DNA of 64,000 nucleotides from Obrimoposthia wandeli (Eukaryota), in the NCBI GenBank assembly GCA_977020255.1, contig CDROCS010003087.1:124001-188000 (forward strand), given 5' to 3'. Of the stretch, positions 2 to 38,621 are shown piece after piece. A program made the translations under genes and the position numbers. The notes below the pieces were generated by a model that made no database searches, was not told the origin of the DNA, and saw nothing but the letters and a program-made list of their open reading frames with translations. Numbering within the stretch: position 1 is the first letter of the stretch; each line of letters opens with the position of its first letter.

Positions 2-3000
2 AATCCATCTCTCTCAATCAACGTATTTACATTCAATAGGTTCTCTAATGTGCAAACAGATGGGGATATCTTCAAAAATCCCTATGTGGATGTCATTTAC
101 AGGACCACAAACCCGGACGCTAAGCCAATCAATCTTCTCATTTTAGAAAATAATGATAATTTTCATTATGTCGGTATTCCTAAACTCAATAGGCTGCTTA
201 ATTATAGGAACAGAGGTGTATCTAATCGCATCCAGTGTACTTGGTGCCATAAGTGTCTTCATGGCTTCCGGAGACCAATAAGTTACGCCAAACACGTTCC
301 ACTCTGTAGGATGAATTTAGATCATAAAACGCTTTATTCAATGCTTACAGAGAAGCATATTGAGTTTAAGGACTTTTCAGAAACGATTTCTCCGCCTTTT
401 GCTGTTTACGCGGACTTTGAGGCTGTGCTGCCGCCACATGGAATCCACCATCAGATTCAGCTTCCAATCTCGGCCGGTATGCTCATGTCTCCCGTTGCAG
501 CCACGAGAGGGTATACACATGATTACTCGGTCTTTATCGGAGAATCTTGTGTGGTATCCTTTTTGCAGAAATTAGAGGACTTGGCGAAAGAGGTTGTACT
601 CCCATGGTACAAAAAGCATGCGATCGAGGTGATCCGACAACTCACACAGGAACAGGTATCGAGTTTCAATGCAGCAAGAATCTGTTATCTGTGTAAGAAG
701 AAACTCGCAAACAAAGTTCGAGATCACGATCACATGACTGGCGAATACCTGGGAGCAGCGCATACGAAATGCAACTTATCAAGGAGAATCAATCGATCTT
801 TTCCCGACATTTTTCACAATCTTATGGGTTATGACATGCACCATATATTGAAGCACGCACTATGCAAGTTTCCCGACTGGAATGTATCTGTTATACCTCA
901 ATCAACAGAGAAATTCCAGGCTATGATGGTGTATATTGGAGGAGTCTGTATACGTTTCATCGATTCCCTTCAATTTTTGAACAGCAGCTTAGAAAAACTT
1001 GTGGAAAACCTGGGTGTGACTCCTCTTACACATTCGCTCTTCCCGCAACATCTGGTGAGCGCCAAGGGAATCTTCCCATACGATATGGCAGTATCAGAGA
1101 CTGCTCTTCGCGCAATCACCAGCTTACCGCCAAAGTGGGATGAGAAGATCAAGCCAGCACAATATGAAATGGCGAAGATGGTCTGGACTCAGAGCGGCTG
1201 CTCATCGCTCTGGGACTATATGCTGGTCTATATGAAGATGGACGTCTACCTTCTAGCAGAGGTGTTTACAGCATTCCGGACCAAGGCCATTGCTGACGAT
1301 GGATTGGAGCCACTCAATTTCTTCTCCATCCCTGGTTTGTATTTTACTAATTTTTTCTAATTTTAGACACTAACACATATATATATATATACATGTATAA
1401 GAATAAATGTAGTACTTGTTACTATTGATTGCATAAAGATGCAGGTTTTTGCAATATAGATGCAGCACGTCTTTGTAAGATATGATGATTGTCTTTGTTA
1501 GACACACACGTGACTGTCTTTGTAGGTATAGGTGACTGTCTTTGTTAGATACTCACACACATATATACATGTATAAGAATAAATGTTACTATTGATTACA
1601 TAAAGATGCAAGTATTTGCAATATAGATGCGTGACCGTCTTTGTTAGATAGATGATTTTCACAATGATTTTCACAATGATTTTCACAATGATTTTAATAA
1701 ATGATTTTATTTCCAGGACTGACTTTCGCGAGTGCTTTCAAATCCCTGCTTCGTCCGGCTTCTTCTTCTGCTCCCGTTGTGCGAGTCGAGCTAATACAGG
1801 ATCCAGAAATGTACCGACTCTTCCGGTCTGGGATTCGCGGGAGTATGACATTTGTTAATGAACACCGCGTTGACGCCATCAATGGTACAGAACTTTTGTA
1901 CATTGATGTAAATAATTTGTACGGGTGGGCTATGTCCCAGTGTTTACCTTGTGGTAACTTTTCCTGGGTGACTGATCGGTTAGAGTTGGGGAATATTATT
2001 TCCAGCTTAAAATCAGTAGATTTATCCTGTAGTCGCTTCGCTCATTTATTGGAAATAGATTTATCCATTCCTTTCGAGCTTCATAATAAATTCGACGATC
2101 TTCCCCTTGCTCCCATTAAACAGCGTCCACCAGGGTGTAAGACTGAAAAATTGTTATTAACGCATTACCCTAAGAAACATTATGTTGTGCATTCTAGATT
2201 GCTACAAATGTACGTTAGACTTGGTGCTAAGGTAGATTTTGTATATAGAGCAATACAGTTTGAACAAACTAATGTTTTTTCAAAATATATTGAGGATAAT
2301 TCTCTCAAAAGAGCTGCGGCTACAACAGATTTCGAGCGGGATTATTATAAACTGAAGGTGAATTCTTTATTTGGAAAACTCATTGAGAATCTGATGAAAA
2401 GAATTAACCTCCGGATTTGTAATACTCCACAGAAGCTGGTTACCTATTGCAGTAAAGCCCACTTTCGTAGGACAATCGAAATCGATATGGACCTTATTGC
2501 AGTTTTACTGGATAAGGAAAATATTGTTTTGGATCGTCCTAGTTACATGGGCCAGGCGGTATTAGATTTAAGCAAACATCGTATGTATGAGCTACAATAT
2601 GAGCAGTTGGAGAAATATCGAGTTCAATTTAACTGCGACATTAGAATTATAGCGGGTGACACTGATAGCTTTTTCTTGAAGTGTAATAATGTCAATGTTC
2701 AAGAATCACTGTTACCTGCTATGATTGCTGATGGACTGTTAGATACCTCGAAATTTCCAAAAACCCATCCGCTTTATACGACGTTTAATACAGCGATAGG
2801 AAAATTTAAGGGATTATTTAGTTATAGGCAAGGGATTTTTCTACGACCAAAATCATATAGCCTAGAGACTACAGAAGGTGAATCTCAGATGAGAGCGAAA
2901 GGTATTAGTCTCCGACAGACGAGTATTAGGCACTCTAATTACTTAGCCGTATATGAGAGTGGCGTTAGCGAGCGTGTACAACAACAACGTATAAGCTCGC

Positions 3001-4950: not shown

Positions 4951-5003
4951 GTAAGTATTTTGATTTTATTTTAATTTTATTTAATTTTTTTTTTTTTTTT
5001 TAG
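4951..5003 (+). other. 5'-UTR intron (53 nt)
   Basis: GTAAGT donor, long T tract, and TAG acceptor immediately before ATG 5004. Confidence 0.75.
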
Positions 5004-5109: not shown

Positions 5110-5149
5110 GTAATTTTCGATTATTATTTTTAATTTAATTTTCATTTAG
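5110..5149 (+). other. Phase-1 intron (40 nt) in the polB polyprotein leader
   Basis: G|GTAATT...TTCATTTAG|CA joins the 35-codon exon from ATG 5004 in frame to ORF 5152..6402. Confidence 0.78.
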
Positions 5150-5739: not shown

Positions 5740-5994
5740 AACAAGTTAATTAAATCAAGAGGTTACCCCTTACTTTTTAAACCAGGGACACCTGTTATAT
5801 CACCTGTTAATTCGGTAGAAAATTTCGATGTAAATGAGATATACTCGGGTTTTGAAAATATCCCGTTTAAAAAATCTTTTAATCAGTTAAAGAAAGTTAA
5901 AAATCAAAATATTGATTTAAGTAAACTGAAAACAGAAGGTAGGAGGGGTAAACGATTTCGTCAGAAGCTGCGTAGATTGAGAAAACTACCAGCA

Positions 5995-6213
5995 GATATA
6001 ACAATATTTGCAAATTTATTAGGGTCTTGCAAACCCATTAATATTAGTCCAGGTCTGAAAATTACAGATCTGGCAAATAAATTATATGAAGTCTTCAGGA
6101 CTGACCAAATTTATTTTAACCGTAATGGCATGCCCTTTGAAAGGGAAGCTATTATCGGCGATGTTTTACATGAGGGGGCTATTATCCATGTATACCCTAA
6201 ACTTCGTGGAGGA
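5995..6213 (+). other. Ubiquitin-like domain ending in LRGG within the copy 2 polyprotein
   Basis: About 73 aa, DITIFANLLG...HEGAIIHVYPKLRGG, which parallels the ubiquitin C-terminus ESTLHLVLRLRGG in length and pattern. Confidence 0.72.
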
Positions 6214-8509
6214 AGTAACTTATGTACATTGTACAAGTATTGCACAAACGTTAATCATGGAATAGAATGTCATAGTGTAATGCTTAAATATTGTAAATTT
6301 AAAAGCGGTTTTATTTGTCCACATTGTGATGTGTTATATTGTATTGACTATCAAACATTTTATAATGATCATAAGGGTCATCTGACGTATTTTAAATCTT
6401 AAAAGTCAGCATACAAACGTAAAGTAATGATAGTACCAACAATAGACAACAATAAAATAGCAAAAACTGATAATTTTAATGAAGAGTTTGATGTGGTAGA
6501 CTCGTGGGAACCGGATAGTGTTGTAGAAATTGATACTTATCCTGAAGTTGTAGAAATTATTGAGCCTTTAACCCCTAATGAAATCTTAAATAATAATAAT
6601 ATTGATGAACTTATAGATCAGGACGAGTTTATAACAGAAAATGATATTTTCGACTCACTCCTAACTATTACGGATGATGACTTTGATAATATTGTTACAA
6701 TTAATTCAGATAATACATTAACTTTTAACAATCAAATAGGAGGTGGAATTCAATCAAACCTTGTTTTTGATGTTAGTGGATTAAACATGCTTAAACTATA
6801 CATTAACGATAATATGCTAACTGAACTTACTAGCAGTATAGATGTGTTTGGTCCCTGTAAAATACAGTTTGGTGTTGAAACCGAATTTGTCAATAACGAG
6901 GGTCAACATAAAACATGGCATGTAAGCTGTAAAGCAAATATTTTTGAACAAGATTTTATCACTACAAGAACAGTTGAGCTCAACAATAAAATTGAAATTT
7001 ATAAGGATATGAGTTCGGGATGGTCAGTATTTAAAATTCTGTTGGTATCCTTTAAATTTACTGCACTTTCAAACGTAGCAGGATCATCATTTATAAAAAC
7101 CCCGGTTGCGCTTGCTAAACATTATCTATAGTGAACGTAAATAATACTGATGATCAGTGTTTTAAATACGCTGTTCTCAGTATCCTACACTATAAAGATT
7201 TCAATCGAAACAGACAAAGAGTTGAAAACTATAAGGATTATTTAAATGAACTTATATGCGAGCCTGGTCCTATGAGGATAGACGGCATCAAGGCGTTTGA
7301 AAAATTCAATAATATTTCGATAACAGTATTATCCTATAAACCTACAAAGGTAGAGCCTCATAGTAGTCATCTAGTGTTTAAAAACCCAGATGTTAATGTT
7401 ATTTATAGAACGAGTCTTAAGCAGTGCGAAAAAGTAGTAAACTTGTTGCTGTTGGAACAGAGCAGTAATTATCACTATGCGGGGATTACAAACCTGAATA
7501 GACTTTTAAATACTCAAAAATATAATGTGCGTCTCTTTTGGTGTGATAAATGTTTTTTTTTCGTTTTCGAACCACGATTTCATATGACAAACACAGGGCA
7601 CATTGTAATATTAATACAGATTTAACAACCTTGTTTACAATGCCTAAAGAGATCAAGTGTCAGTTTTCCGACTGGTCTAAATCTATTGCGCCACCATTTG
7701 TTGTATTTGTTGACTTTGAGTCAATACTCGAGCTGCATAATACTTTCAAACACATTCATAAACCAATATATATATAGGGATGATTTTGAAAAACAACACT
7801 AATAATTCAATACAATATTTCAGTTATTACGGTCTGCAGTGTGCTAAAAACTTTGTAGATAAATTAACTGAGTTGATAAATGGTGAAGTGGCAGATTTTT
7901 GGGTAAATAGTATTAATGTTCCTATGGTTTTACTAAATAATAACATGTTGAACTTTAGAGATTGCACTAATTATATCTTTGTAAAAAATTAAACGATCGT
8001 ATGGTTAGAGATCATGATCATATCACGGGTAAATACTTGGGTGCGGCATGCAACAAATGCAATTTAAGTCGCAAGTTTGCAAAGAGACCGGTTTTACCTG
8101 TGGTGTTTCATAACCTTATGGGTTATGATATACATCATATTTTAAAATATGCCGACTTGAAAGGTAAATCCTTTTCAATTATCCCTAAATCAAGTGAAAA
8201 GTTCATGTCCCTCCGTATAGAGATGAAGAGGGGACATTGAAATTATTGATTCATACCTTTAAACGTCAAGTCTTGAATCCTTAGTTTCATACTTTGCCAG
8301 AGTTGTCCTTATACTACACAATACCTAAACCCTAATATTGCAACAAGTAAGGCGGTATTTCCATATGAATATATTAGTGGTGTTGATGGAGGCTTATGGA
8401 GAGGCAGTTACCCATAAATCTGTTTCTTCACTCCGAGTCACTGATCAACAATATAATGAAGCCCTAATGATCTGGACCGTATTAGGGTGTAATACTATTA
8501 AAGACTACA

Positions 8510-9500
8510 TGATTGAGTATATGAAACTTGACGTGTATCTGTTATGTGATGTTTTTGAGGCCTTCAGACAGAAAGTAACGGATGATGATAATCTAGAGGC
8601 GCTCAATTTCTTTAGTATCCCCGGTCTCAGTTGGGCTAGCGCATTAAAAACATTAGAGTATGATGTGGATTTATTGCATGATCCCGAAATGTATAACATG
8701 TTTGAGGCAGGGATACGGGAGGGATGACTTTCATCAATAAACATTACGTTAAAACAACAGATGAAACATTCCTCCTATACATTGACATAAATAACCTATA
8801 TGGCTGGGCCTTGAGTCAACCGTTACCACATACAGATTTTACATGGGTATATGACGGTTTGGAAGCGATAATTGAGCTTATAACTGAGAGGGATATTCAC
8901 AGTAATATGCAGGACTTAAGTCTTAAAGAACATGGATACTTGTTGGAAATTGATTTACGCATACCCATCAGTATTCATGATAAACTTGATGACTTACCGA
9001 TTGCGTGATTGAGTATATGAAACTTGACGTGTATCTGTTATGTGATGTTTTTGAGGCCTTCAGACAGAAAGTAACGGATGATGATAATCTAGAGGCGCTC
9101 AATTTCTTTAGTATCCCCGGTCTCAGTTGGGCTAGCGCATTAAAAACATTAGAGTATGATGTGGATTTATTGCATGATCCCGAAATGTATAACATGTTTG
9201 AGGTAGGATACGGGAGGGATGACTTTCATCAATAAACATTACGTTAAAACAACAGATGAAACATTCCTCCTATACATTGACATAAATAACCTATATGGCT
9301 GGGCCTTGAGTCAACCGTTACCACATACAGATTTTACATGGGTATATGACGGTTTGGAAGCGATAATTGAGCTTATAACTGAGAGGGATATTCACAGTAA
9401 TATGCAGGACTTAAGTCTTAAAGAACATGGATACTTGTTGGAAATTGCTTCGCGCATACCCACTAGTATTCATGATAAACTTGATGACTTACCGATTGCG
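8510..9500 (+). repeat. Tandem duplication (about 495 nt x2) inside polB copy 2
   Basis: 8510..9005 and 9006..9500 are near-identical with a few substitutions and a 1-nt indel. Confidence 0.95.
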
Positions 9501-13224: not shown

Positions 13225-13639
13225 ACTTCTCCTGCATAATTACCCAAATTTGTAGCAAATCCCGTTGTTTATAACGAAAAACTGTTAATCAAAAATTTAT
13301 TAAAATAACGAGGTAGTCAGGATTCAGTCTTTCACGTTAAGATTGGTATATATTGTCAATTCTCCTATGAATATTAAAATTAATTATATTAAATGTAAAC
13401 ATACCTAAATATTTCGAAATTAAATTACATATTTTATATCCAATGGTATCCGTACTATCATTTTCTGAAAAGTAATTATTTTTATAATCTTCCATTAAAT
13501 CTGGAGATAATTTTATGTATAATTTATTCCAATTTTTATTATCCATTTTTATTATCCACAAAAAAACTTTATATTTAAATTTGTTTATATTTAGACAATT
13601 TTATAACATAATGAATAAAGACAAAGTAATCAATAAAAT

Positions 13640-13949
13640 TAATTTTTTTGTGGAAGGACCCTCTTCCGGTTTAATCTGGAGGGATTCGCTTTCTTGCTGC
13701 TCGTCGAACATCCTCCGTCTCTTCTCTTCGTTTTTCCTCCTCCTTCATTTTTTCCATTTCGATTTTCTTTTTCCACTCCACGACCCGATGTCGCTGCTAG
13801 CCGCCTGTCCTGAATCTCCACTCTGAGTCGCGACAGCAGTATAAGCTTCTGGGTTGAGGATCCTCTTTCGTAAGTCTCCTTTCTTCTCATTTATTCTTAT
13901 GTTTGGCTCGATCTTCGTCACTCAAACTTTGCAATTTAATAAATTCCAT
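13640..13949 (-). pseudogene. Degenerate charged accessory gene near the Polinton end
   Basis: MEFIKLQSLSDEDRAKHKNK*EERRL..., Glu/Lys/Arg-rich, with in-frame stops. Confidence 0.45.
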
Positions 13950-14244
13950 TTTTAATTATGAAGATGTTAATAAATTTGAACCTATATATATAATTTAAGA
14001 TATTTTAATCCAATCACAAGCAATTAAAATATATTTATCAAAATGAAAGTTTAATAAATATATAACTAATCATTGCATTTATATTTAATCCTAAAAAATT
14101 AAATTATTCCTTAATAATCCAATCACATTCGAATAAGTTAACTTTATTTTTTAATCTTGTTATTTTTAATAAACTTAAGGAGGATATTTTAATATTATTT
14201 AAATTCTAAAATAAATAATAAAAAAAAGACAACACAAGAAAGTT

Positions 14245-16060: not shown

Positions 16061-16922
16061 ATTTATAGCTTGTTACAATTGACTTTCAATATTTTTATTT
16101 CGTTTATTGATTAAATTTTCAAGTACAAAGTACCAGTATTTTTAAAATTTTAAGTTTTAATATATTTTAAGTGATTTCTTGTTTTTAAATTTTAAAATAT
16201 TTATATTTCATACATATATATATATTTAATGAACATTAATTACTCACAAAGTGAAACAAATATATTTTCAAATTTTAGGAGAATAATAAACAAGCGTGTG
16301 TTTTTTTAAAGATCCAGATACTGATGAAGGTGGAGAGAGTATTCTATTTAACAGAAAGTATTGAAGAATACAATATTGTTTGCCCTAATTACCAATTATA
16401 GTGAGAAAAAGAAGATTTAGGGAATAGGTTTTAAAGGTTATATTAACAGCTAATCGGCGTAAATAACCAAAATTGAAAGTGACATTAAAAAATGTATTTT
16501 ATTTTACATTGCAGATAGTGCCAGATATGAAATTAGATTTGTGAGTACATGACGATGCCTAAAAAAAATATATATATATATATGATTGAAATGTAAAACG
16601 GTTACAAGAGAATGACAAATCAGAACAATATCTAGCTAAAATCCTACACAAAGTTTCGAAATAAAGGCAACACGAATATTGAACAAGCTGAACCTCATAC
16701 AGTGTACTATCAACAAGTCCTGTAAACCACAGGCTGTCACATATGATGTTAATTTCCTTTTGATAGCTTAAGCAGTTAGTTAATGTTTACTTAAAAATAT
16801 AACGACAGTCTTGTCAAAATTAAATAAAAAACTTTGACTGAACAGGATTCAGCCAATTTGACTAACTCAATAGTAAATATCAATCGTGTACTTTTCTTAT
16901 CCAAAATGTAATCAATTCACCA

Positions 16923-17849
16923 ATGAATGAATCTCAGACAAATACGTCGTGCAACATCACTAATCAATATTATAAATGGCTACTGAACATATGTATTCCA
17001 TCGATCCGGCTAACGGTAGCCTCATTGGGGATTTGCAGTTGTATTTTGTCACTGTTCCTGCTGGTTATTCTTCGAACGCCGCGAATGCATATATTCACTT
17101 TGTCACATCTTGTTACAGAATCGCTGGCAGATCTTTTCTATTGTTCCTTTGGAATTTTGTTTTCTATCAACAGACTATGTCAGATGAATCTACTAACAGA
17201 GTTACATAATTGCATCATGGACTCATATACACTGAATAGCTTACAGATGATCCGTAATTGGGCCATATTCGTAATGGCTGCCGAAAGATTCTTCATTGTT
17301 CGATTTCCAACTGCTTCGAGGATAAAGACCCTGAAACTAAAACAGGCTTTCTGGTCGCTGTCAATAATTATCATTTCCGGCTTTAGTGTAAATGTCTATT
17401 TTATAACGAGATTCAATGTTTGCTACAAAAATATCAGTAATCTAGCTTATCGGAATTTCTTTATAATGGATCTCATTATAGGTCTTCTAGTCATTCCTGT
17501 ACCGTTGCTGGCAATGTTTGGCTTCACTGTAGGTACAGTAATTGTTGTAAAGAAAATCCAACGCAAGGCATACTTAAACAAGACTAGTGGATCAAATAAC
17601 ATCAACTTCACGAGGCTGACAATGGTGCTCATAATTTCTTTCTTCTATTTTCTTGTTTCTGTGCCATTCATTTTCGGTTACCCCATAAATGCTGTGCAAT
17701 TGCTCAGTGAAGACGAAATCCATATTTTTAATAATGCAATTACAATATTTTACAATTCTTCCGGTATAGGAAAAGGATTTCTATATGTTTATTTTACTTG
17801 GAAATACAATAGAAATAAAATAACTACAAAAAATGACGCTCTATGCTAA
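16923..17849 (+). CDS. Intronless class A (rhodopsin-like) 7TM GPCR, peptide/chemoreceptor-like orphan
   Basis: 308 aa, about seven hydrophobic segments, N-glycosylation sites in the N-terminus, TM2 SLADL, and TM3 AERF..VRFP. Confidence 0.85.
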   Translation: MNESQTNTSCNITNQYYKWLLNICIPSIRLTVASLGICSCILSLFLLVILRTPRMHIFTLSHLVTESLADLFYCSFGILFSINRLCQMNLLTELHNCIMDSYTLNSLQMIRNWAIFVMAAERFFIVRFPTASRIKTLKLKQAFWSLSIIIISGFSVNVYFITRFNVCYKNISNLAYRNFFIMDLIIGLLVIPVPLLAMFGFTVGTVIVVKKIQRKAYLNKTSGSNNINFTRLTMVLIISFFYFLVSVPFIFGYPINAVQLLSEDEIHIFNNAITIFYNSSGIGKGFLYVYFTWKYNRNKITTKNDALC

Positions 17850-27097: not shown

Positions 27098-27965
27098 CTA
27101 GAGGAAGGGGGTTGATTTAGACCGGATATATTCACCTAATCTCGAAAATATGATTTTGATTGTGTTTGTTATTTGAAAGCAAAAAAGTCAATTGAAGGAA
27201 TAATGTTTTAATCCATGAATACTTGTTTTTTGTGTTTTCTATCAATTTCTGGCATTGATTGTATTTCATACTGGACATCATGCGATAAACTGTCCATTAG
27301 ATAATGTAATTTTGATCTATCCTCCGAAATATTATTATTTTTAAAAATTATTTCGATCTTCTGCAAAGGTCTAATGATATCTTCACCGATTTTGAATTTA
27401 TCCTGAATGATTGTTTTTCTTGAAAGTAATCAAGGAATGATTATTTATTAACCAAAATATCTAGAACAATATTTAACAATCCAATTGAATGGTTTGAAAG
27501 GTTTTCTAAACCAGGATTTGTAAAATTTAGAATTTTAATTATTTTGAAAAAGTGTTTATCACATACTACCTTTTAACTTCAATAGCTAATATTTACTCAT
27601 TTAGAATTTTGAGAGAAATCACATTTTTGTTTTTTAAAAACAAAATTGAATGCTATGTTATGTATTGTTAAAAGTATTATAGGTTAGAAATACTTAAATT
27701 CTCGATTTTGTATAATAATTAGTTATAATTATTTGAAAGTTTATCTTCAAAGGAAATTCGAGGATGAAGTGTGAGTTTCAAATATTTGATTAGCAAACGC
27801 CAGCAATATTTAAGCAATTGATGGATTAGCAAATTTGGACAGGACTGTTGACATTAGCACGCTTTATTCAAACAAATAACTCAAAGAATTGTACCCAGAA
27901 CTTCATTTAATTGAAATACTTTTCCAGTTTTAAAAATATTGCAAAAATCAATTAGCTACAATTCA

Positions 27966-28877
27966 ATGAATGAATCACGCTTCGTAAATGCGAAAGCAGA
28001 AAAAGTTACATTTATTCTGTCGTACATCCATTACATTCGTATAGTCATATTGTCGTTGGGAATATGCTGCGGCTTTCAGTCTCTTTTTCTGTTGATTGTT
28101 CTACGGATTCCGAAGATGCGGAAATTCACTATGGTGTTTCTAATTTCTGAATCCGTCGTTGACTTCATATACTGTATGATATCGCTAATAACAGAGATGT
28201 TGTACTATCAAAGAATCCCCAACACGGATATAACAGTGGTCTGTCTAGCTGACACGTACATAATGAATGGACTACAGGTGATCAGAAACTGGATGATGCT
28301 ATTGACGGCTATTGAGCGTTTCTGCATAATTCGATACCCAACCTCAAATCGGGTGCGCAACCTGCAGATGAAGCACGGTATCATTAGCTTGGTATCCATA
28401 ACTGTCTGTGCGTTCACATTGACTGTCTTCCATGTGACTGACTTCAATGTCTTATGTTACAGAACTAGTACGAAACAGGACGAGGAGCGATATCTGATGG
28501 TGGATCAGTTCATTGGACTATTCGTCATTCCGATTCCATTGCTGGCGATGTTTAGCTTCACTGTGGCCACGCTCGTGGTTGTGCACAGGATCCAGAAAAA
28601 GGTTATCCCCTCAGCAACTGCAACAGGAAGCTTCGGTTCGTCCTCGGTCGATTTCACAGCACTCAAGGTGGTTCTCATAATCTCGCTTTTCTACTTCCTC
28701 GTTTCTTTTCCTCTTTTGATGATATATTCTGTTAATTTCATATCTGTTCCTAATCGGTTTCGATTTCGTATCATCATTCTTTCTTGGATTTCCAGAATAC
28801 TATATGACTCTGCTGGATTGGGTAAAGGTATTCTATATGGATTCTTTGCATGGAAAGATCGCAGAATTAGAAATTAG
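27966..28877 (+). CDS. Intronless class A GPCR, paralog of 16923..17849
   Basis: Same MNES start, AIERFCIIRYP, GLFVIPIPLLAMFSFTV, VLIISLFYFLVSFP and GLGKGILY. Confidence 0.87.
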   Translation: MNESRFVNAKAEKVTFILSYIHYIRIVILSLGICCGFQSLFLLIVLRIPKMRKFTMVFLISESVVDFIYCMISLITEMLYYQRIPNTDITVVCLADTYIMNGLQVIRNWMMLLTAIERFCIIRYPTSNRVRNLQMKHGIISLVSITVCAFTLTVFHVTDFNVLCYRTSTKQDEERYLMVDQFIGLFVIPIPLLAMFSFTVATLVVVHRIQKKVIPSATATGSFGSSSVDFTALKVVLIISLFYFLVSFPLLMIYSVNFISVPNRFRFRIIILSWISRILYDSAGLGKGILYGFFAWKDRRIRN

Positions 28878-29660: not shown

Positions 29661-30819
29661 TCCCTTCAAATTCATAATTCAACGTTAATGACAAAATTTC
29701 AATTATTATACAATTAAATGATCCTTCTAAGTAGTTACATATATCCCTATTTTTACATGTAACTTACAACAAAGTAACAAGCGATGTTGTTGTAAAGAAA
29801 CTTTAATCTTTAAAACTATTTATTGAAATAGACTCTAGTAAAATGTTTGAAAAGTCTGAAAATTATGAAAGCGGGGATAAAAGAAAAGATTTTAAATAAA
29901 TTATCGAATAACTGTACATTTTCTGTCAGTAGCATTCTAAAATCTCAACGATTTGCAGTGATTGCTAAATATGATGATAGAAATGTAATTTAAAACTTTT
30001 CTACTAAGGTATATAATCCAGATTAAATTATAAGTTTCAGCCTTTGCAATTTGATATGTTTGTAGCCAACTTTGTAGTTCAATTTCAATTTATGTTTTGA
30101 TGTTAGTTTTATCACTTATTTTTGTAATTCTTTTGTGTTAGTACTGTAAAGGGGTTCAAACTCAATCGGAAATGGTCATATTAAGAATATCCTCAAACCG
30201 TTGATTGAAGTAAGAATAGAAATCCACAAAGTGTTAACAATGGTTAAGTAAAGTCTTAAAATAAATTTAAGCTACAAATTAAAAAACTGGTTGATTACCA
30301 TACGTACTAAATTTTGTCTATACTAAATAAGTTTCATCACAAATGCATAAATAACAACTTGTCGCTTTGAATCTGCAGAATTGTTTCATTGTATTTATTA
30401 ATCAAGTTTATCAAGTAATCGATGTTATTTTTGGAATCAATCAAGTTGACCCATTATGTAAGTAAGTGGATGTGTTCGGTCTAATCCAAACCCTACCCCG
30501 GGAGGGGGCTACCACTGTCCTTTAAAATCGTGCATGTGTGTAGAGTGAAATTTTCTGTGATTTTTTCGCTCCCACCCAAAAATATTTCGCCACTTTGGGA
30601 GTGGTTACATTTCGCACCCTCCAGGCGCTACAGTATTTTCATTAACTTTATCCATCTACATATACCCTACCTCTCACTATGACAAATACACATCTATATC
30701 TCGTGTCATCTATATCACTATAAATTACGAATTCATAAAGTCTATTTTTTAACTCATATTTTGAATAAATTATTGGGACATACTTAAACATAAACTATAA
30801 ATTATTTAAGAGGAAGGCT

Positions 30820-31050: not shown

Positions 31051-31819
31051 AATTTTATGTGTTTTGTTTCATTTTTAATTTATTTTTTAAAAAAACTTAA
31101 ATATTAAATTTTTTTACAAATTTAGTAATATTAAAATACAATAATTTTTTTTTTTAATTTAAAATTAAAAAATAAAAAAATAGTTAACTTAATCGAATGT
31201 GATTGGATTTATTAGAAATAATATAATTCTACATGTCTTCACATTTTTTTACATTTTTTTAATTTCAAAAAGATAAGTTTAAAATTTATATAGAAATGCA
31301 ATGATTAGTTATAGATTTATTAAATTATAAATTCTCATTTGATAAATAAAAATATATAATTTAATTGAATGTGATTGGATAAAAATATTTTTAATAAATA
31401 TATATATATATATAGGTACAAATTTAGAGTTTAGATTAAAAGAAAAAATTTACTAATTTATATCTAACTAATTATTTTCATTTATTAAAATGGAAAGAAG
31501 GACATAAGGCTTTTTGTGAAATATGTATTTTTGATACAATTAAATCTAATTTTGATATTGAAAATAGAATTTTTTATGTTTTAGATGAAATGAATGGCAA
31601 AAAGTATAAGACTTTAAATAAATATTTTCCAAAATTGAGATTGAATACCTAAAATATTTCACGTGATCATATATTGAAAATTCCACGAAATATTTGCTGT
31701 CCATATCGTGATCATGGTGACCATTGCGCATATAAAAAAATTTAAGTCTTTCTTATTATTACTTGACATGTAGATAAAAAATTCTTCTAATTGGAGAAAT
31801 TCATTATTTACAAAATAAT

Positions 31820-32005
31820 ATTTTCAGCCAATAACAAAATACCTAAATACAAATGAACAATCATTTTAATTGGAGGAATAAAATATATTAAAAATAATAA
31901 TATCAACCAATAACAGATAAGCAATTCTTCGCAATGGAGGAATAAATTCAATATTTTCATCCAATAAGAAAAGAGCATGTGTGCATAAAATTTAGTATAT
32001 AAGCA
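31820..32005 (+). promoter_or_regulatory. Putative Pol II promoter of polB copy 6
   Basis: Repeated CCAAT/ATTGG boxes and TATATAAG about 45 nt upstream of ATG 32043. Confidence 0.55.
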
Positions 32006-32042: not shown

Positions 32043-32896
32043 ATGAATATGGTAAGAACCTTTATTTTATTATTCTTTATCAATATTTATTATTTCAGAT
32101 TACGTGTAACGTATTCCCTGTGTATTGTGGTGCATCGGCTCCAAATGGAGAAGATTCCTGCATAGCGATAATGTCCACCTACTATCGGACAAAGTCTCAA
32201 GGGAGGGTATTCTTCGTATGCCCCTTCTGCAGAACTATAGACGACAAGGAGTTTCGAGACTTCTTCAATGAACATCGAGATCACTTGTCCTGCTTCACGG
32301 CCAACAACAAGAAGAGGGCCTTCGTGCAATTAGTGCGCAATTTGCAAGTCGCTCCAGCTCTAGCTCCTGTCCCATTTGCTGCATTTCAAGCCGTCTACGG
32401 TCCTGTAATTGGTCCTTCTCTCCCGTCTCTCGATTCTGCAGCTGTCTCATCCACTCAAATGACTAACAATGAGTGGATGAACGGCATCTCTTAAGAAGAT
32501 TTTGAGGACTTGACGCCAACAACCCAACTCTCGAACAATGACTGGATGGAAAATATCACCCAGTCAGATTTCGAGATGGAGCAGCCTCAGTGGAGCGACA
32601 ACAGCTGGTTGGAGGACATCGAGGAATCCGATTTCGTTGAGTTAACATACGACAGCTGGATGGATTCCATCAATGAAGAGGACTTTCAACCAGCTACAGT
32701 TGATTCAGCTTCATCAGGTACTTTTTTATTATTATTTTTCTGATTATTTTTTAAAATTGTAATTAAAGATATTTTATTTTATTTTTTATTTTTTATTCGG
32801 GAAATACCTTGAGACAACCGATGCCGTCATCTGCTACGACAGCTATGCTTCCTCCATCGCGAGTGCCTAGATCGATGTTTGCACGCCTTATAGGTA

Positions 32897-32943
<47 letters not shown>

Positions 32944-34650
32944 ATATATTTATTTCAGCAGATGCATCCACAGCCTCTACAACAGCCGCTTCCTGTTCTT
33001 CCCCGTCAGCAATGTCATCTTCAACTACATCAGCTACTGGATACTCAAATACAGCATCTACAAGTGCCATCGCCTCAACATCTTCAACATCACTTTCTTC
33101 AGCAGCACCGTCTACATCAAACGCGATTGCTTCAACTTTAGCAGCACAGACATATTTAAATATAAATAGTTGTCTTCCCATTCAATTAGGGGAAGTTTGT
33201 CAGTGACTCTAGGAAGAAAGAGGCGAGGCCAATTTCTTAATAAGGTCCCACCAAAGAAACGTAGGGAAAACAGTGCTACTATAGAATATCACCTAAATTA
33301 AAAAATATATAGTTAAGGTGCCATTAGGAAATAAAATTTTATTAATCGTAGGTGTAGATTTAAATATTGAAAGTCTTTTAAAATCAGAAATGACTAAATT
33401 AGAACAGGCTAAGGTTCAATTTTGCGCAACAGTGCAGTTTAAAAATGTCAATGAAGAGTCTAAAACTTGGGTAATTTCACATAAAGCAACTGTTTTTTAT
33501 GATAATTTTGCAACTGAAATTGGAAGAAATCTCGATGAAACAATTGCTAAATATAGCGAGTTAAGTAGTGAATGGACTCTAGTTAGAATTCACGATGTTA
33601 GCTTTGTTTTAACAAAGTTCAATGTCATCATATATTTTTCGAGTAGTTCATACATTCCTTCACCTAGATCTCTTCAACTTTCACGTTCCATTGTTAACGT
33701 ACAAAACAGTGATAACCTTTGCTTTCTGTATAGCGTGTTGGCTATCCTCAAAAGGGATGTAATTACTGAGCATAGAGAGCGTGTCAGTAAATATACCCCT
33801 TTTAAATGAATTGCAGTATCATGGAATAGATTTTCCTGTTAAATTAACTGCGATATCAAGATTTGAACATCTTAATAACTTGAGTAATAATGTATACAAA
33901 TATAATACTGATATCCCAGTTAATGTATCAGATGAATAAATGTTTAAAAATCCTTTTGTAGATGTGATTTACAGGAGCAAAAATGAGGGGATTTCGGTCA
34001 ACTTAATTTTGCTCGAACATAATAAGAAATTATACTATGCTGCAATTCCTAATATAGATCGTCTTCTAAATTTAGATAATAGAGCCTTACCAGTTAGGAT
34101 AAGGTGTAAATGGTGTCATAGATGTTTGCATGGATTCCGATCCGAGTTCTCTTTCAGCAAACATCTGACATTATGTACACTGAATCCTGATGACAATACA
34201 CTATATAGCATGCTTAAGGATAAGGATTAAAATTCAGAGATTGGGCAAAATGCATACCCGTGGAATTCGGGATGTATGTTGATTTTGAGTCAATTTTAGC
34301 ATTGGACGACCAGTATGAGAGTATTCACCTACCGGCTTCGGCAGGACTATTATTCTTAGGCCCCAATATAACTCAGGATCATAAATATTTCTGTTCAAAT
34401 TGTATTTTAGATTTTATATTAAAATTAGAAGAATTTATGAACTGTAATTGTCAAACCGTGATATGATCTTAATGCTCATCAAGCAATGATCATAACAGGC
34501 ATAGATTGGGTTAATTTTAATTCTAGTATATCATGTTATTTGTGTGGTACCCATTCTAAGTTAGTCAGAGATCACGATCATGTTACGGGGCGATACTTGG
34601 GATCGGCATGCAACCTCTGTAACCTTGGCCGTCTAAAAAAAAACATGCAT
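32043..34650 (+). pseudogene. polB: Spliced, degenerate, 3'-truncated pPolB polyprotein (copy 6); introns 32052..32098, 32718..32800 and 32894..32958
   Basis: Each intron removal restores the frame to the next ORF. Downstream: SDNLCFLYSVLA, MYVDFES and HDHVTG..ACNLCN. Confidence 0.82.
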
Positions 34651-35349
34651 TCCCATTTAAACCGAGGTTTTTAGCGAGTTTATCATCAAATGAAACCCGT
34701 TTTCCATTGCTCTTTCCCGTAAACGTCAATTTACCATTTTTTAATGTTTCACATTTATCCAAATATTCACTACATTCCTTCTGTATTAATTTACAGAAAT
34801 TCACTTCACTATCTATTTTATAATCTTTTGAAAACATTTTCAGTTCCACTACAGTCTCGTTTCAACTAACTACACTCTTACTACTCTACTAGGAACATTT
34901 TTAAACATTTTATATGAGACAATATCAGATCTCTTCATACCTACTACATGTCCACTATCAAAACCGAATTGAAGAGCTTCTTTTCCAGATTCGAATATAA
35001 TTTGAATAGGTTGAAAATGTTTTGATCGATTTTTAAATCTGACTTTGTTTTTTTCATATATTACTTTCACTTCTTTATCTATACAATTGTAAAAGAATTT
35101 TCCTTTACTATCAAACCCGATCACAACTTTAGTTGTTTTTTCATGATCAACTTCTTTTGTAAACGAAATATGTGAGTTGTTTCTGATAGTAATTGAAGAA
35201 TAATAAAAAGAAAATTCGGTTAAAGCCGCTTCCCATTCTCCTTGGAGATTTATAGGATTTTCCCAATCAATAATAAAGCTACTAGCGTAATTATCTGGTT
35301 GAGTCTTCGGACATCCATTACTAGGTAAAACCATATACATAGACTTCAT
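34650..35349 (-). pseudogene. Polinton minor capsid (penton), truncated
   Basis: MYMVLPSNGCP..DWENPINLQGEWEAALTEF; stop and frameshift near 34860. Confidence 0.85.
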
Positions 35350-36308
35350 ATTATATTAGATGCTGATATCCAAGTTGGGTCTGAATAACCATGCCATTTA
35401 ACAAAGTATTGTTTATGCTTACCTGTACACTTAGATTTTAATATTTTTTGAATACGGAAAACGCTAGGTTTATTTGATATTACTTGTAGTTCTTGCTCGT
35501 AAAATTTACCGTGAACGATATTATTGTCAGCATCTTTAATAGTATACATTATTGGATTACTCTTTTGATCAATTTTACTTATACAAAATATTTCATCGCT
35601 CCAATTCTGATCAAAGTTTTTAATAAATGGAGTAGAGCTAATTTTCGAAATTCGAACATATTCGTTTTTCTTATATTTAGCTTTTTTAATTTTATCTTTT
35701 TTATTCCTGTTCATCCAAATGTCCATAGAGTTTTTATTAGTAACATCAACAGGTCTCATTCCCTTGAGACCTCTATGTTCAGAGTGATTATATGCATGTA
35801 TTATTTTAGGTAAAACTTGGATCCATTTTTTATTTCCTTCTTTTGTGAAATACTTTTTTATTCGATCTCTTAGAGTACGATTAAATCTTTCTACTACTGC
35901 TGCTTTGTATTGTGAAAACACAGAGTAATGATTTATATTATTTTGTTTAAATAATGATTGAACTTGCTTATTATAAAATTCTTTTCCTAAATCAGTTTGC
36001 ACATTTTGTGGAATGTCCTCTTTTAATATTTCTTTAATGGCTTCAAGCATAGCTATTGAAGACTTTGCTTTAACTGGAATTGCACGAGCAAACCTGCTAA
36101 ATACATCAATACATGTTAAAATATATCGATATCCCTTATTTATGGAAGAATATGGAAACCTTCTTATCATCGGCTTGTTCAGACGGTAGGCTAACTGATC
36201 GCTCAGCTATTTCTGTGTTTTCTTGGAATTCTATTTTATTCTTTTTGCCAATTTTGAAACTCCTGTGTAGCCAGTTGGATCCCTTGGATTGAACCATATC
36301 TTCTCCAT
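35346..36308 (-). pseudogene. Polinton retroviral-type integrase with C-terminal chromodomain
   Basis: MEKIWFNP start, YILTCIDVFSR, QTDLGKEF, VVERFNRT, YFVKWHGY. There are two in-frame stops, and the first catalytic Asp segment appears deleted. Confidence 0.9.
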
Positions 36309-36934: not shown

Positions 36935-37543
36935 TTAAACTCCCTTAGAATTAAATATGTCTGTTAAAACACGTAAATCATCTGGGCAAGCTTGTGTAAA
37001 GTCAATAAATATATACCCATGTTCTTGTTTAGCAGCATCGTGGAATGAATCAACTAGAAAGTTCTTATTTTGGGGAAACGCCTGTCTGGCCACAAAATCT
37101 ACAACTGTTTGATCTCTAGGATTTTTAAATAAAACTAAGTAATGTACATTAAGATTTCTAGTTCTATGGTGACCTCCTTGTTGGAAAAGATTTTGAGTGA
37201 TAAATATAACTGTTACTTCACGATGTCTTGCAATCTTTGTAAATAAATTTTTAAAGTCAGATTCCTTGTTAGCTTCCTGATACAAATCATCAATTATTAT
37301 TACATCTTCTTTTTTCAATCTTTTACACCAATTTGCATCAAATTCTTCAATAAATTGTATTCCCTTCAACTTGCAAACTTCTGTTTTGGTTAATCCGCTT
37401 TCCCCTCCACCATGATGCCAATAAATATTTTTGAAACTAGATTTGAAAATAGATTCATTTTGCAACAATTTACATACGAAATGTGTCTTTCCACTTCCAC
37501 TGGGACCAACTATTTGAAATACAGCATTATTATTTAGCTCCAT
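36935..37543 (-). CDS. Polinton A32/FtsK-like DNA packaging ATPase
   Basis: Walker A GPSGSGKT, Walker B IIIDD, FITQNLF, LVLFKNPRD; the ORF is intact (202 aa). Confidence 0.92.
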   Translation of the reverse strand: MELNNNAVFQIVGPSGSGKTHFVCKLLQNESIFKSSFKNIYWHHGGGESGLTKTEVCKLKGIQFIEEFDANWCKRLKKEDVIIIDDLYQEANKESDFKNLFTKIARHREVTVIFITQNLFQQGGHHRTRNLNVHYLVLFKNPRDQTVVDFVARQAFPQNKNFLVDSFHDAAKQEHGYIFIDFTQACPDDLRVLTDIFNSKGV

Positions 37544-38621
37544 TGCATATAATCTTTCATTTTTAATATTGTTTATATTATCATAGAAGTTTACTTATTG
37601 AAATGTACAATGTTAGAGCTATTCTAGATGAAATACAAAAATTAATTAATGAATATTTGGCTATAATTTTATTTATTTGCAATTGATTTCTAAATTCTCG
37701 AATAACGTATGATCTAACCAATATTTCAATGTTATCTCTTGTTATATCATTATTTTTTTAATTCGGATAAAATTTGTTTACTCCTCATTTTTCCAGAAAA
37801 TATTTTGTCGACAAGACGATCCACTTCATTGTTTGTATGTATAGTATTATTAATTTGAAACAATAAGTTTAAACGGGTTTTTTTATAGAAAAGATAACAA
37901 GATGTAATAAGATATATTTTCTAAAATCAAATCAACAATGTCTGGATAATCAATATTTTTCAATCCCAATAACTTTACATATTTACATATAGCGGTTTAA
38001 ACTTCAAATAACTGAGAGCAGGAAAAAATTTCCGGTTCAAACATTATTCTTTCATTTTCTCTGTAATTTTATAAAGATTTATTTGTTTCCCGAGATTAGC
38101 TGAAATTGTGTTTGATTGTATTGCAGTGATTCGAATTTCAAATGGTAATTCGAACTCAAGCAAAAGTATTTTGTATCCCATAACACGACAACTTCCTAAA
38201 AGTATTCAATATGAAAATAAAATAAAATAAAAAACTAATCTGTGGGAAAAATAACAACTGTGAAATCATTAAACATTTTCACATATTGTCTCAGCTTTCA
38301 TTCATTGAATGGTAAGTACGAAACATCATTTTCAATTCTAACTTTATAATTTATATTTACGAGTTTTATTAGACTAAAATTGTATTCTGTAAATTCTTCT
38401 TTATATATGCCTGAATCTGCTCTTTTAATGCACATTTCTTGTAATTATCTTGCAAACATATTATAATTGGATGATATATTTCTTCCAATCAATTTTTGAT
38501 TTTTTTAATATGGATTTAGTCCAATCAAATGCAATACTTTAGTTATATTAACCAATGCGATTCATATCTTTGTTACAAATTAGTATAAAAGCATGCGCCA
38601 TTGAAGGACAAATCACAATAA

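Follow-up and report, generated by a model that had tools for sequence, protein, structure and literature searches.

Can the core replication gene of a Polinton be split by spliceosomal introns? In descriptions and searches alike, Polinton core genes are treated as single open frames. The window analysed here, a stretch of 64,000 nt from the AT-rich, 1.35-Gb genome of Obrimoposthia wandeli, holds a polB gene (copy 6) whose 5′ region reads as one frame once three AT-rich segments are taken out. This raises the questions of whether the segments are introns, whether the exons between them belong to polB and how they came to be there.

Judged by its ends and gene content, copy 6 is a decayed Polinton/Maverick. 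Its left terminal inverted repeat (TIR; 30461..30560, + strand, end approximate) matches the TIR at both ends of two other copies. On the − strand lie an rve integrase with a chromodomain (35349..36206; Pfam PF00665 E 7e-9, PF00385 E 1e-5), which is collinear in relatives and scores above the PF00665 cut-off in the window copy and in another copy, and an A32-like packaging ATPase (36938..37594; PF04665 E 3.7e-6, 27 bits against a cut-off of 22.8). Two of four extended copies carry inverted matches of 112–121 nt at their two ends, the TIRs starting with AGTAG; one copy with both ends gives an element length of about 19 kb, and a 6-bp target duplication is present in one of two copies with both ends. 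The polymerase of one family copy covers 996 of the 1156 residues of P0003 (PF03175) at 47% identity. Homologues of the genes adjoining copy-1 polB occur in all four extended copies; motifs suggest that these neighbours encode capsid proteins and an adenain-like protease, for which Pfam gave no match. Relative to ten collinear copies fetched with their flanks, the window copy is missing around 0.9 kb near 31425 and the polymerase core, around 4.4 kb at 34656.

The family to which copy 6 belongs is numerous. Identity among its copies is about 88% in exon 2, and 292 genomic places match 24 flank letters exactly around a gap of 44–50 nt, the pattern of intron 1; a rough correction of these exact matches for decay would put the family at more than 1,000 copies. 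Counts of 7,300 or 23,088 search candidates were rejected as copy numbers. Elsewhere in the window, two related hydrophobic open reading frames (16866–17849 and 27915–28877, + strand) are 41% identical and look by eye like host seven-transmembrane receptors, with no Pfam match at E 0.01.

The three predicted introns, all on the + strand, lie exactly where the preliminary description had placed them, with the lengths and phases that it gave. Intron 1 (32052..32098, 47 nt, phase 0) reads ATG|GTAAGA..TTTCAG; intron 2 (32718..32800, 83 nt, phase 1) ends in the non-canonical acceptor GG in the window copy; and intron 3 (32894..32958, 65 nt, phase 1) has GT..AG edges and an (AT)n run inside. They separate four predicted exons: the coding part of exon 1 (32043..32051), an ATG-x-ATG of which both ATGs are retained in a sister subfamily; exon 2 (32099..32717); exon 3 (32801..32893), 93 nt long, symmetric in phase (1-1) and 87 nt in the sister subfamily; and exon 4 (32959..34656), a linker and the N-terminal part of pPolB, which ends at the core deletion. 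GC content is 0.17, 0.11 and 0.05 in introns 1–3 against 0.47, 0.51 and 0.44 in the flanking exons. The removal of the segments joins the only open frames into one, which has a single internal stop, the TAA at 32492–32494, between 32043 and 33204–33206.

The choice of edges is narrow. Within 20 nt of them, the edges given above are the one pair of GT and acceptor that joins frames for intron 1 (1/1) and for intron 2 (one of four pairs, with GG counted as a candidate). For intron 3, three of six pairs join frames, all from the donor given above; the first in-frame acceptor is kept by all sister copies, the second lost in 6 of 16.

Several lines of evidence from relatives bear on whether these segments are introns. 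We compared the window copy with its 29 best other copies, with a larger set of 51 copies and with the sister subfamily, a younger group found via a fragment at window 13290–14000, of which 16 of 20 fetched copies were used and four excluded for large deletions. First, the splice sites are family-wide. In the 29 other copies, 161 of the 174 dinucleotides at the six sites are canonical (intron 1, GT 27/29 and AG 28/29; intron 2, GT 27/29 and AG 25/29; intron 3, GT 25/29 and AG 29/29), and the sister subfamily retains all six sites, canonical in 91 of 96 cases (GT 15/16 and AG 16/16 for intron 1, GT 13/16 and AG 16/16 for intron 3). The suspicion that acceptor 2 had mutated from AG to GG is borne out by the relatives: AG stands at 32799–32800 in 25/29 of them, in 40 of the 44 copies with letters there in the set of 51, and in 15/16 sister copies. 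Because most other copies are canonical here, and because the TAA at 32492–32494 recurs in only 1/29, the GG acceptor and the stop are peculiar to the window copy. Apart from that acceptor, the edges are of U2 type, with a GT donor and a YAG acceptor behind a T-rich tract. Lengths vary around short modes, 47 and 46 nt for intron 1 and 46 nt for intron 3, which reaches 65 nt in the window copy through expansion of its (AT)n run. Within the family, the commonest letter at splice sites has a frequency of 0.96, against 0.94 at non-CpG exon sites; this constancy is near neutral decay, and so shows the ancestral state more than continuing selection.

Second, the open frames connect when the segments are removed. 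In the 29 copies, shared stops leave a single frame clear in exon 2 and a single one in exon 3, and it is these two that removal of the introns brings together. Within intron 2, no frame is clear of shared stops, and if a single intron is retained, just 2, 2 and 3 of 30 copies stay open and in frame for introns 1–3, respectively. Indels follow the same division: in the set of 51 copies, 89 of 108 indels in exon 3 and the exon-4 linker are multiples of three, compared with 13 of 147 in the introns, although the in-frame indels of the linker may partly stem from slippage in codon-periodic repeats. Exon 2 and the polB body have few indels, mostly private. Between the subfamilies, the interior of intron 2 is 74% identical and exon 2 is 84% identical.

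Third, exon 2 bears the mark of selection. Among 46 copies, we compared synonymous and non-synonymous changes shared by at least five copies with those seen as singletons. The shared changes in exon 2 divide 34:40 (synonymous:non-synonymous) against 80:311 for singletons (p=1.2e-5), whereas the other two frames give p=0.53 and 1; the substitution pattern thus shows purifying selection on exon 2 in the predicted frame only. The same test was not significant for exon 3 alone (p=0.53) or for the first 24 codons of exon 2 (p=0.096), and the fixed differences between subfamilies in exon 2 (12 synonymous:29 non-synonymous) indicate weak constraint.

The segments could instead be AT-rich insertions, decay products or stretches that are simply read through. 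In favour of this, no intron-less genomic copy was seen: exact two-flank patterns for introns 1, 2 and 3 and for the copy-1 core intron described below found 0 intron-less genomic copies, in a search with a positive control for intron 1 only (292 with the intron, 0 without). Intron 3, moreover, has no shared stop in the frame of exon 3. We regard this explanation as barely credible, given that, in both subfamilies, all copies whose alignment spans the segments possess them, with GT..AG edges, that their lengths vary regardless of frame at a GC content of 5–17%, and that the flanking exons are selected in frames that only splicing joins. The segments also resemble introns of the host, in which six alpha-tubulin loci have inferred ATG|GT..AG first introns of 43–57 nt (counted by hand) in a similar style, from which it follows that sizes such as those of the copy-6 introns should be usable in this host. 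The tubulin family model itself has 152 genome-wide matches (G000), unusually many even allowing for exon-by-exon matching. Four read runs of unrecorded kind from one sample cover the copy-6 and young copy-1 regions evenly, in a DNA-like manner. Among the 15 rows listed for each region, beyond which 608 and 32 more exist, no joint falls at a predicted GT..AG edge, a result that with such DNA-like cover does not bear on splicing.

Are the predicted 5′ exons part of polB? Taken alone, the window copy could suggest a small separate gene upstream of a polB with its own start codon, since its spliced frame ends at 33206. The stop at 33204–33206, however, is common to only 3/29 copies and lies behind a copy-specific shift that puts the window copy out of frame from about 33190 to about 33300; the gene itself extends further. 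Six of the 29 copies preserve the net frame between exon 1 and position 33690 and so hold one frame into polB; with the introns taken out, these six have 1–7 stops in around 480 codons, compared with 25–34 when unspliced. In the copy-1 lineage, moreover, the domain homologous to exon 2 is continuous with polB for about 814 codons. A separate gene is therefore very unlikely, and on the evidence of these frames the predicted 5′ exons belong to polB. Downstream of them, the exon-4 frame matches P0002 (42% over 136 aa), and the polymerase core reads through: seven family copies have one continuous frame with no AT-rich dips, and alignment of a family copy to P0003 has no intron-sized gap over residues 144–433 and 435–1152. 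Introns in the copy-6 polB core were accordingly rejected. The window copy itself, with its stop, non-canonical acceptor, frame shift and core deletion, is dead.

The added N-terminal region has a distinct layout. Exon 2 begins with a Cys/His domain (approximately 32099–32300), followed by an Ala/Pro/Ser linker and acidic repeats; exon 4 continues with a Ser/Thr/Ala-rich linker to about 33180 and then the conserved N-terminal part of pPolB. Such polymerases carry N-terminal TP and vOTU domains, according to two reports (10.1101/2024.03.18.585575, PMC8502044). From this literature and from its motifs, the conserved part of exon 4 would be the terminal-protein/vOTU region, for which Pfam gave no match. 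In copy 6, acidic motifs of the approximate form hydrophobic-x-x-I-x-E-x-D-F precede the TP region (window 32460–32690), as they do at window ~6590–6690 and at residues 62–115 of P0002; a single comparison of the acidic repeats with P0002 gave a weak match (E 0.002). An LGG motif ahead of the TP region could be a vOTU cleavage site.

The Cys/His domain is probably zinc-binding: its eight Cys/His positions are kept in 42–45 of 46 copies, and its CxxC..HxxH motif occurs in three polB lineages. Its best Pfam match, zf-Sec23_Sec24, stays below the cut-off (E 0.006); a model of the domain reached pLDDT 70 (37 for a single-sequence fold), with a best Foldseek hit to Kaiso fingers at E 1.7 and a best VIA Z of 3.4. 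No longer proteins matching exon 2 or the 33297–33806 frame were found, in a search that is weak by the tool's own note; no relatives of the Cys/His alignment were found in metagenome contigs and none of P0002 in viral contigs, and a PDB sequence search with exon 2 and a copy-2 segment ending in LRGG returned nothing significant. That copy-2 segment (window 5920–6219, + strand) lies directly before the Cys/His domain and suggests a ubiquitin-like unit, which the vOTU of the element itself could cleave; it had no Pfam or PDB match.

How old are the introns? Each of the three polB lineages in or beside the window has intron-like GT..AG segments. These lineages are 44–49% identical in polB (copy 6 and the copy-1 lineage, about 49%), with support of only 51–54 at the tree nodes that would order them; a profile scan of the loci collected for analysis found no fourth. 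The earlier idea that splicing is a family-wide trait is supported by predicted introns, and for the lineages of one genome only.

Intron 1 has counterparts in both other lineages. A TATA-like box (31996..32003, + strand), for which we infer a promoter role, lies in a 14-letter word, TAGTATATAAGCAA, that is identical upstream of copy-1 polB. The copy-1 5′ end (L126), upstream of the window, reads ATG|GT with a 42-nt segment ending in AG, an ATG|GT..AG arrangement that is canonical in 27 of 30 copies of that lineage and precedes the homologous Cys/His domain (BLASTP 32% over 60 aa against exon 2, E 2e-11 in a single comparison). In copy 2, a predicted 5′-UTR intron (4951..5003, + strand; GT 27/29, AG 29/29) has its ATG directly after it and is followed by a 40-nt predicted phase-1 intron (5110..5149, + strand; GT 29/29, AG 26/29), and the Cys/His homologue is placed further in (6214..6399, + strand; E 1e-8 and 5e-6), by sequence comparison with no intron directly before it; part of this 5′ region reads N. 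A 495-nt tandem duplication lies inside copy-2 polB (window 8498–9500). The distance from the TATA box to the GT is 56 nt in copy 6, 57 nt in the copy-1 lineage and 53 nt in copy 2. The preliminary description had set the copy-6 introns apart from those of copy 2 by position; this holds for coding positions, whereas the distance of the first intron from the TATA box is equivalent (53 against 56 nt). Because this distance matches in three lineages, and because ATG|GT and the homologous domain recur in copy 1, intron 1 is probably an old promoter-proximal intron common to all three. The match could also be convergent, since this host often has an intron right behind the ATG.

Introns 2 and 3 have a different history. 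Their place is the interval from the acidic repeats to the TP region, which is only a short spacer in copy 2 and P0002 and an unrelated open linker in copy 1, and the linker that carries them has no alignable counterpart in the copy-1 or copy-2 lineages. Differing positions therefore cannot tell gain from loss, nor either of these from arrival within an inserted stretch. The probable source of both introns is a linker expansion peculiar to the copy-6 lineage, in which they arose or with which they came.

Arrival with captured DNA would mean that a piece of an intron-bearing host gene, comprising exon 3, the two introns and the Ser/Thr linker, was taken up in frame, an account that concerns origin only and is compatible with splicing. 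The 5′ exons are richer in GC than the polB body (0.44–0.51 against 0.32) and diverge faster between subfamilies (41/185 exon-2 codons against 4/97 polB-body codons), a contrast between window 32099–33180 and 33321–33690 that in itself suggests an exchange of modules or a fast-evolving N-terminus. Both introns, moreover, are of phase 1 and flank a symmetric exon, and one report describes intron-bearing, GC-rich cargo in nematode Mavericks (10.1101/2022.07.12.499685). Against this, no source was identified in the host, the linker of copy 1 has no introns in spite of its high GC, so that composition may follow amino-acid content, and the domain in exon 2 is common to other Polinton lineages. We consider such a capture unlikely.

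A further segment in the window bears on intron gain. In the polB core of the copy-1 lineage, at the SIPG motif, lies a phase-1 GT..AG segment with internal tandem repeats (1335..1716, + strand; 382 nt), which measures 204–493 nt in the 7 of 12 fetched copies in which both edge motifs matched. It is absent from the copy-6 and copy-2 lineages, being missing from three copy-6-family copies and copy 2, and nine database proteins are continuous at its site, although some may be spliced models, as proteins rather than DNA were compared. The copy-1 family is very young (the 150 copies listed are 99–100% identical in the N-terminal domain). From these comparisons, the copy-1 core intron is the best candidate for an intron gain that we have seen. 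Separately, in the copy-6 family, the gene upstream of polB, which is marked by an IDFEAF motif, contains one GT..AG segment of 40 nt and perhaps another (window 13360–13400, − strand, and family copies, for example L070 5150–5195); its copy-1 homologue starts at the motif and has no GT..AG segments.

The preliminary description had proposed repeated, independent acquisition. In that account all the introns are real and each was gained on its own, again and again, in the variable N-terminal region of each lineage. Introns 2 and 3 fit it in having no counterpart in copy 1, where the linker is one open frame, or in the sequenced part of copy 2; so do the phase-1 intron of copy 2, which has no counterpart in copy 6, and the core intron, found in the copy-1 lineage alone among the rows compared, so that lineage-specific gain does seem to occur. 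It accounts poorly for intron 1, with its counterparts in copies 1 and 2, whose TATA distance is alike in three lineages and whose codon position is alike in two; for introns 2 and 3, lineage specificity stands, but across unalignable linkers gain and loss are inseparable. As a general account we find it rather improbable, though less so than cargo capture.

We instead favour, with good confidence, the reading that the three segments are spliceosomal introns at the 5′ end of pPolB, carried along as the element multiplied, intron 1 being probably old and introns 2 and 3 lineage-specific. In this scheme, host Pol II would start around 25–30 nt behind the TATA box, in the nucleus, and the host spliceosome would remove the three introns from the polB transcript. 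The product would be one polyprotein, headed by the probably zinc-binding domain; behind it would come a flexible linker, acidic and rich in Ser/Thr, and then TP, vOTU and polymerase. A broader reading, which we hold tentatively and put a little short of an even chance, is that in an animal Polinton clade the core replication gene has come to depend on the host spliceosome, an ancestral promoter-proximal intron being kept across lineages of less than 50% identity while separate lineages go on gaining others: two in the copy-6 linker, one in the catalytic core of a young family and others in a neighbouring gene, amid amplification to hundreds of copies.

Should the introns indeed be spliced out, a highly successful family would express its replication gene in the nucleus by way of host splicing, and the real polB protein would begin around 400 codons ahead of the earliest polB motif that can be recognised, opening with a Cys/His domain not described before. 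‘Broken’ copies in other genomes may then be intact ones that are spliced. As the elements copy as DNA, introns cost them little. Lineages of differing intron content in one genome offer a rare chance to date intron gain, and if the broader reading is true, this genome holds a succession of intron gains that could be dated, in selfish elements that replicate as DNA, and surveys based on open reading frames would miss intact intron-bearing Polintons. The impact lies in annotation and in case studies of intron evolution; no new mechanism is involved.

Among known systems, the copy-6 family shares TIRs, pPolB, an rve integrase and an A32-like ATPase with animal Polintons/Mavericks (Alpha-type adintovirus/polintovirus PolB, PF03175). 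It differs from vertebrate and nematode Mavericks in its polB, for which three introns are predicted at the 5′ end and which extends 300 residues in front of the TP region. The core genes of intact vertebrate Mavericks are reported to be intronless (PMC8097293), and a nematode Maverick is described as having an intronless core with intron-bearing cargo (10.1101/2022.07.12.499685); an intronless core is a reported trait rather than part of the family definition, and copy-6 polB departs from it. The nematode cargo (wasp, KRMA) is likewise GC-rich, fast-changing, intron-containing and located in the left part of the element, but it consists of separate host-derived genes, whereas the copy-6 exons share the frame of a core replication gene and begin with a domain common to Polinton lineages. 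The PolB proteins P0006, P0007, P0009 and P0014, headed by C2H2 fingers, likewise have an N-terminal Cys/His domain; their heads match Pfam C2H2 families, whereas the copy-6 domain has no Pfam match above the cut-off and has extra conserved cysteines. Titles and abstract starts in the full-text literature yielded no spliceosomal introns in animal Polinton polB, although Repbase and subscription papers could already annotate exons. The introners of dinoflagellates are also spliceosomal introns inside Maverick/Polinton-like elements, and the report on them judges them mostly to be transposon-derived insertions made after integration (PMC11957031). The copy-6 introns, by contrast, predate the copy bursts and resemble the minimal AT-rich introns of the host: an ordinary type of intron in an unusual place.
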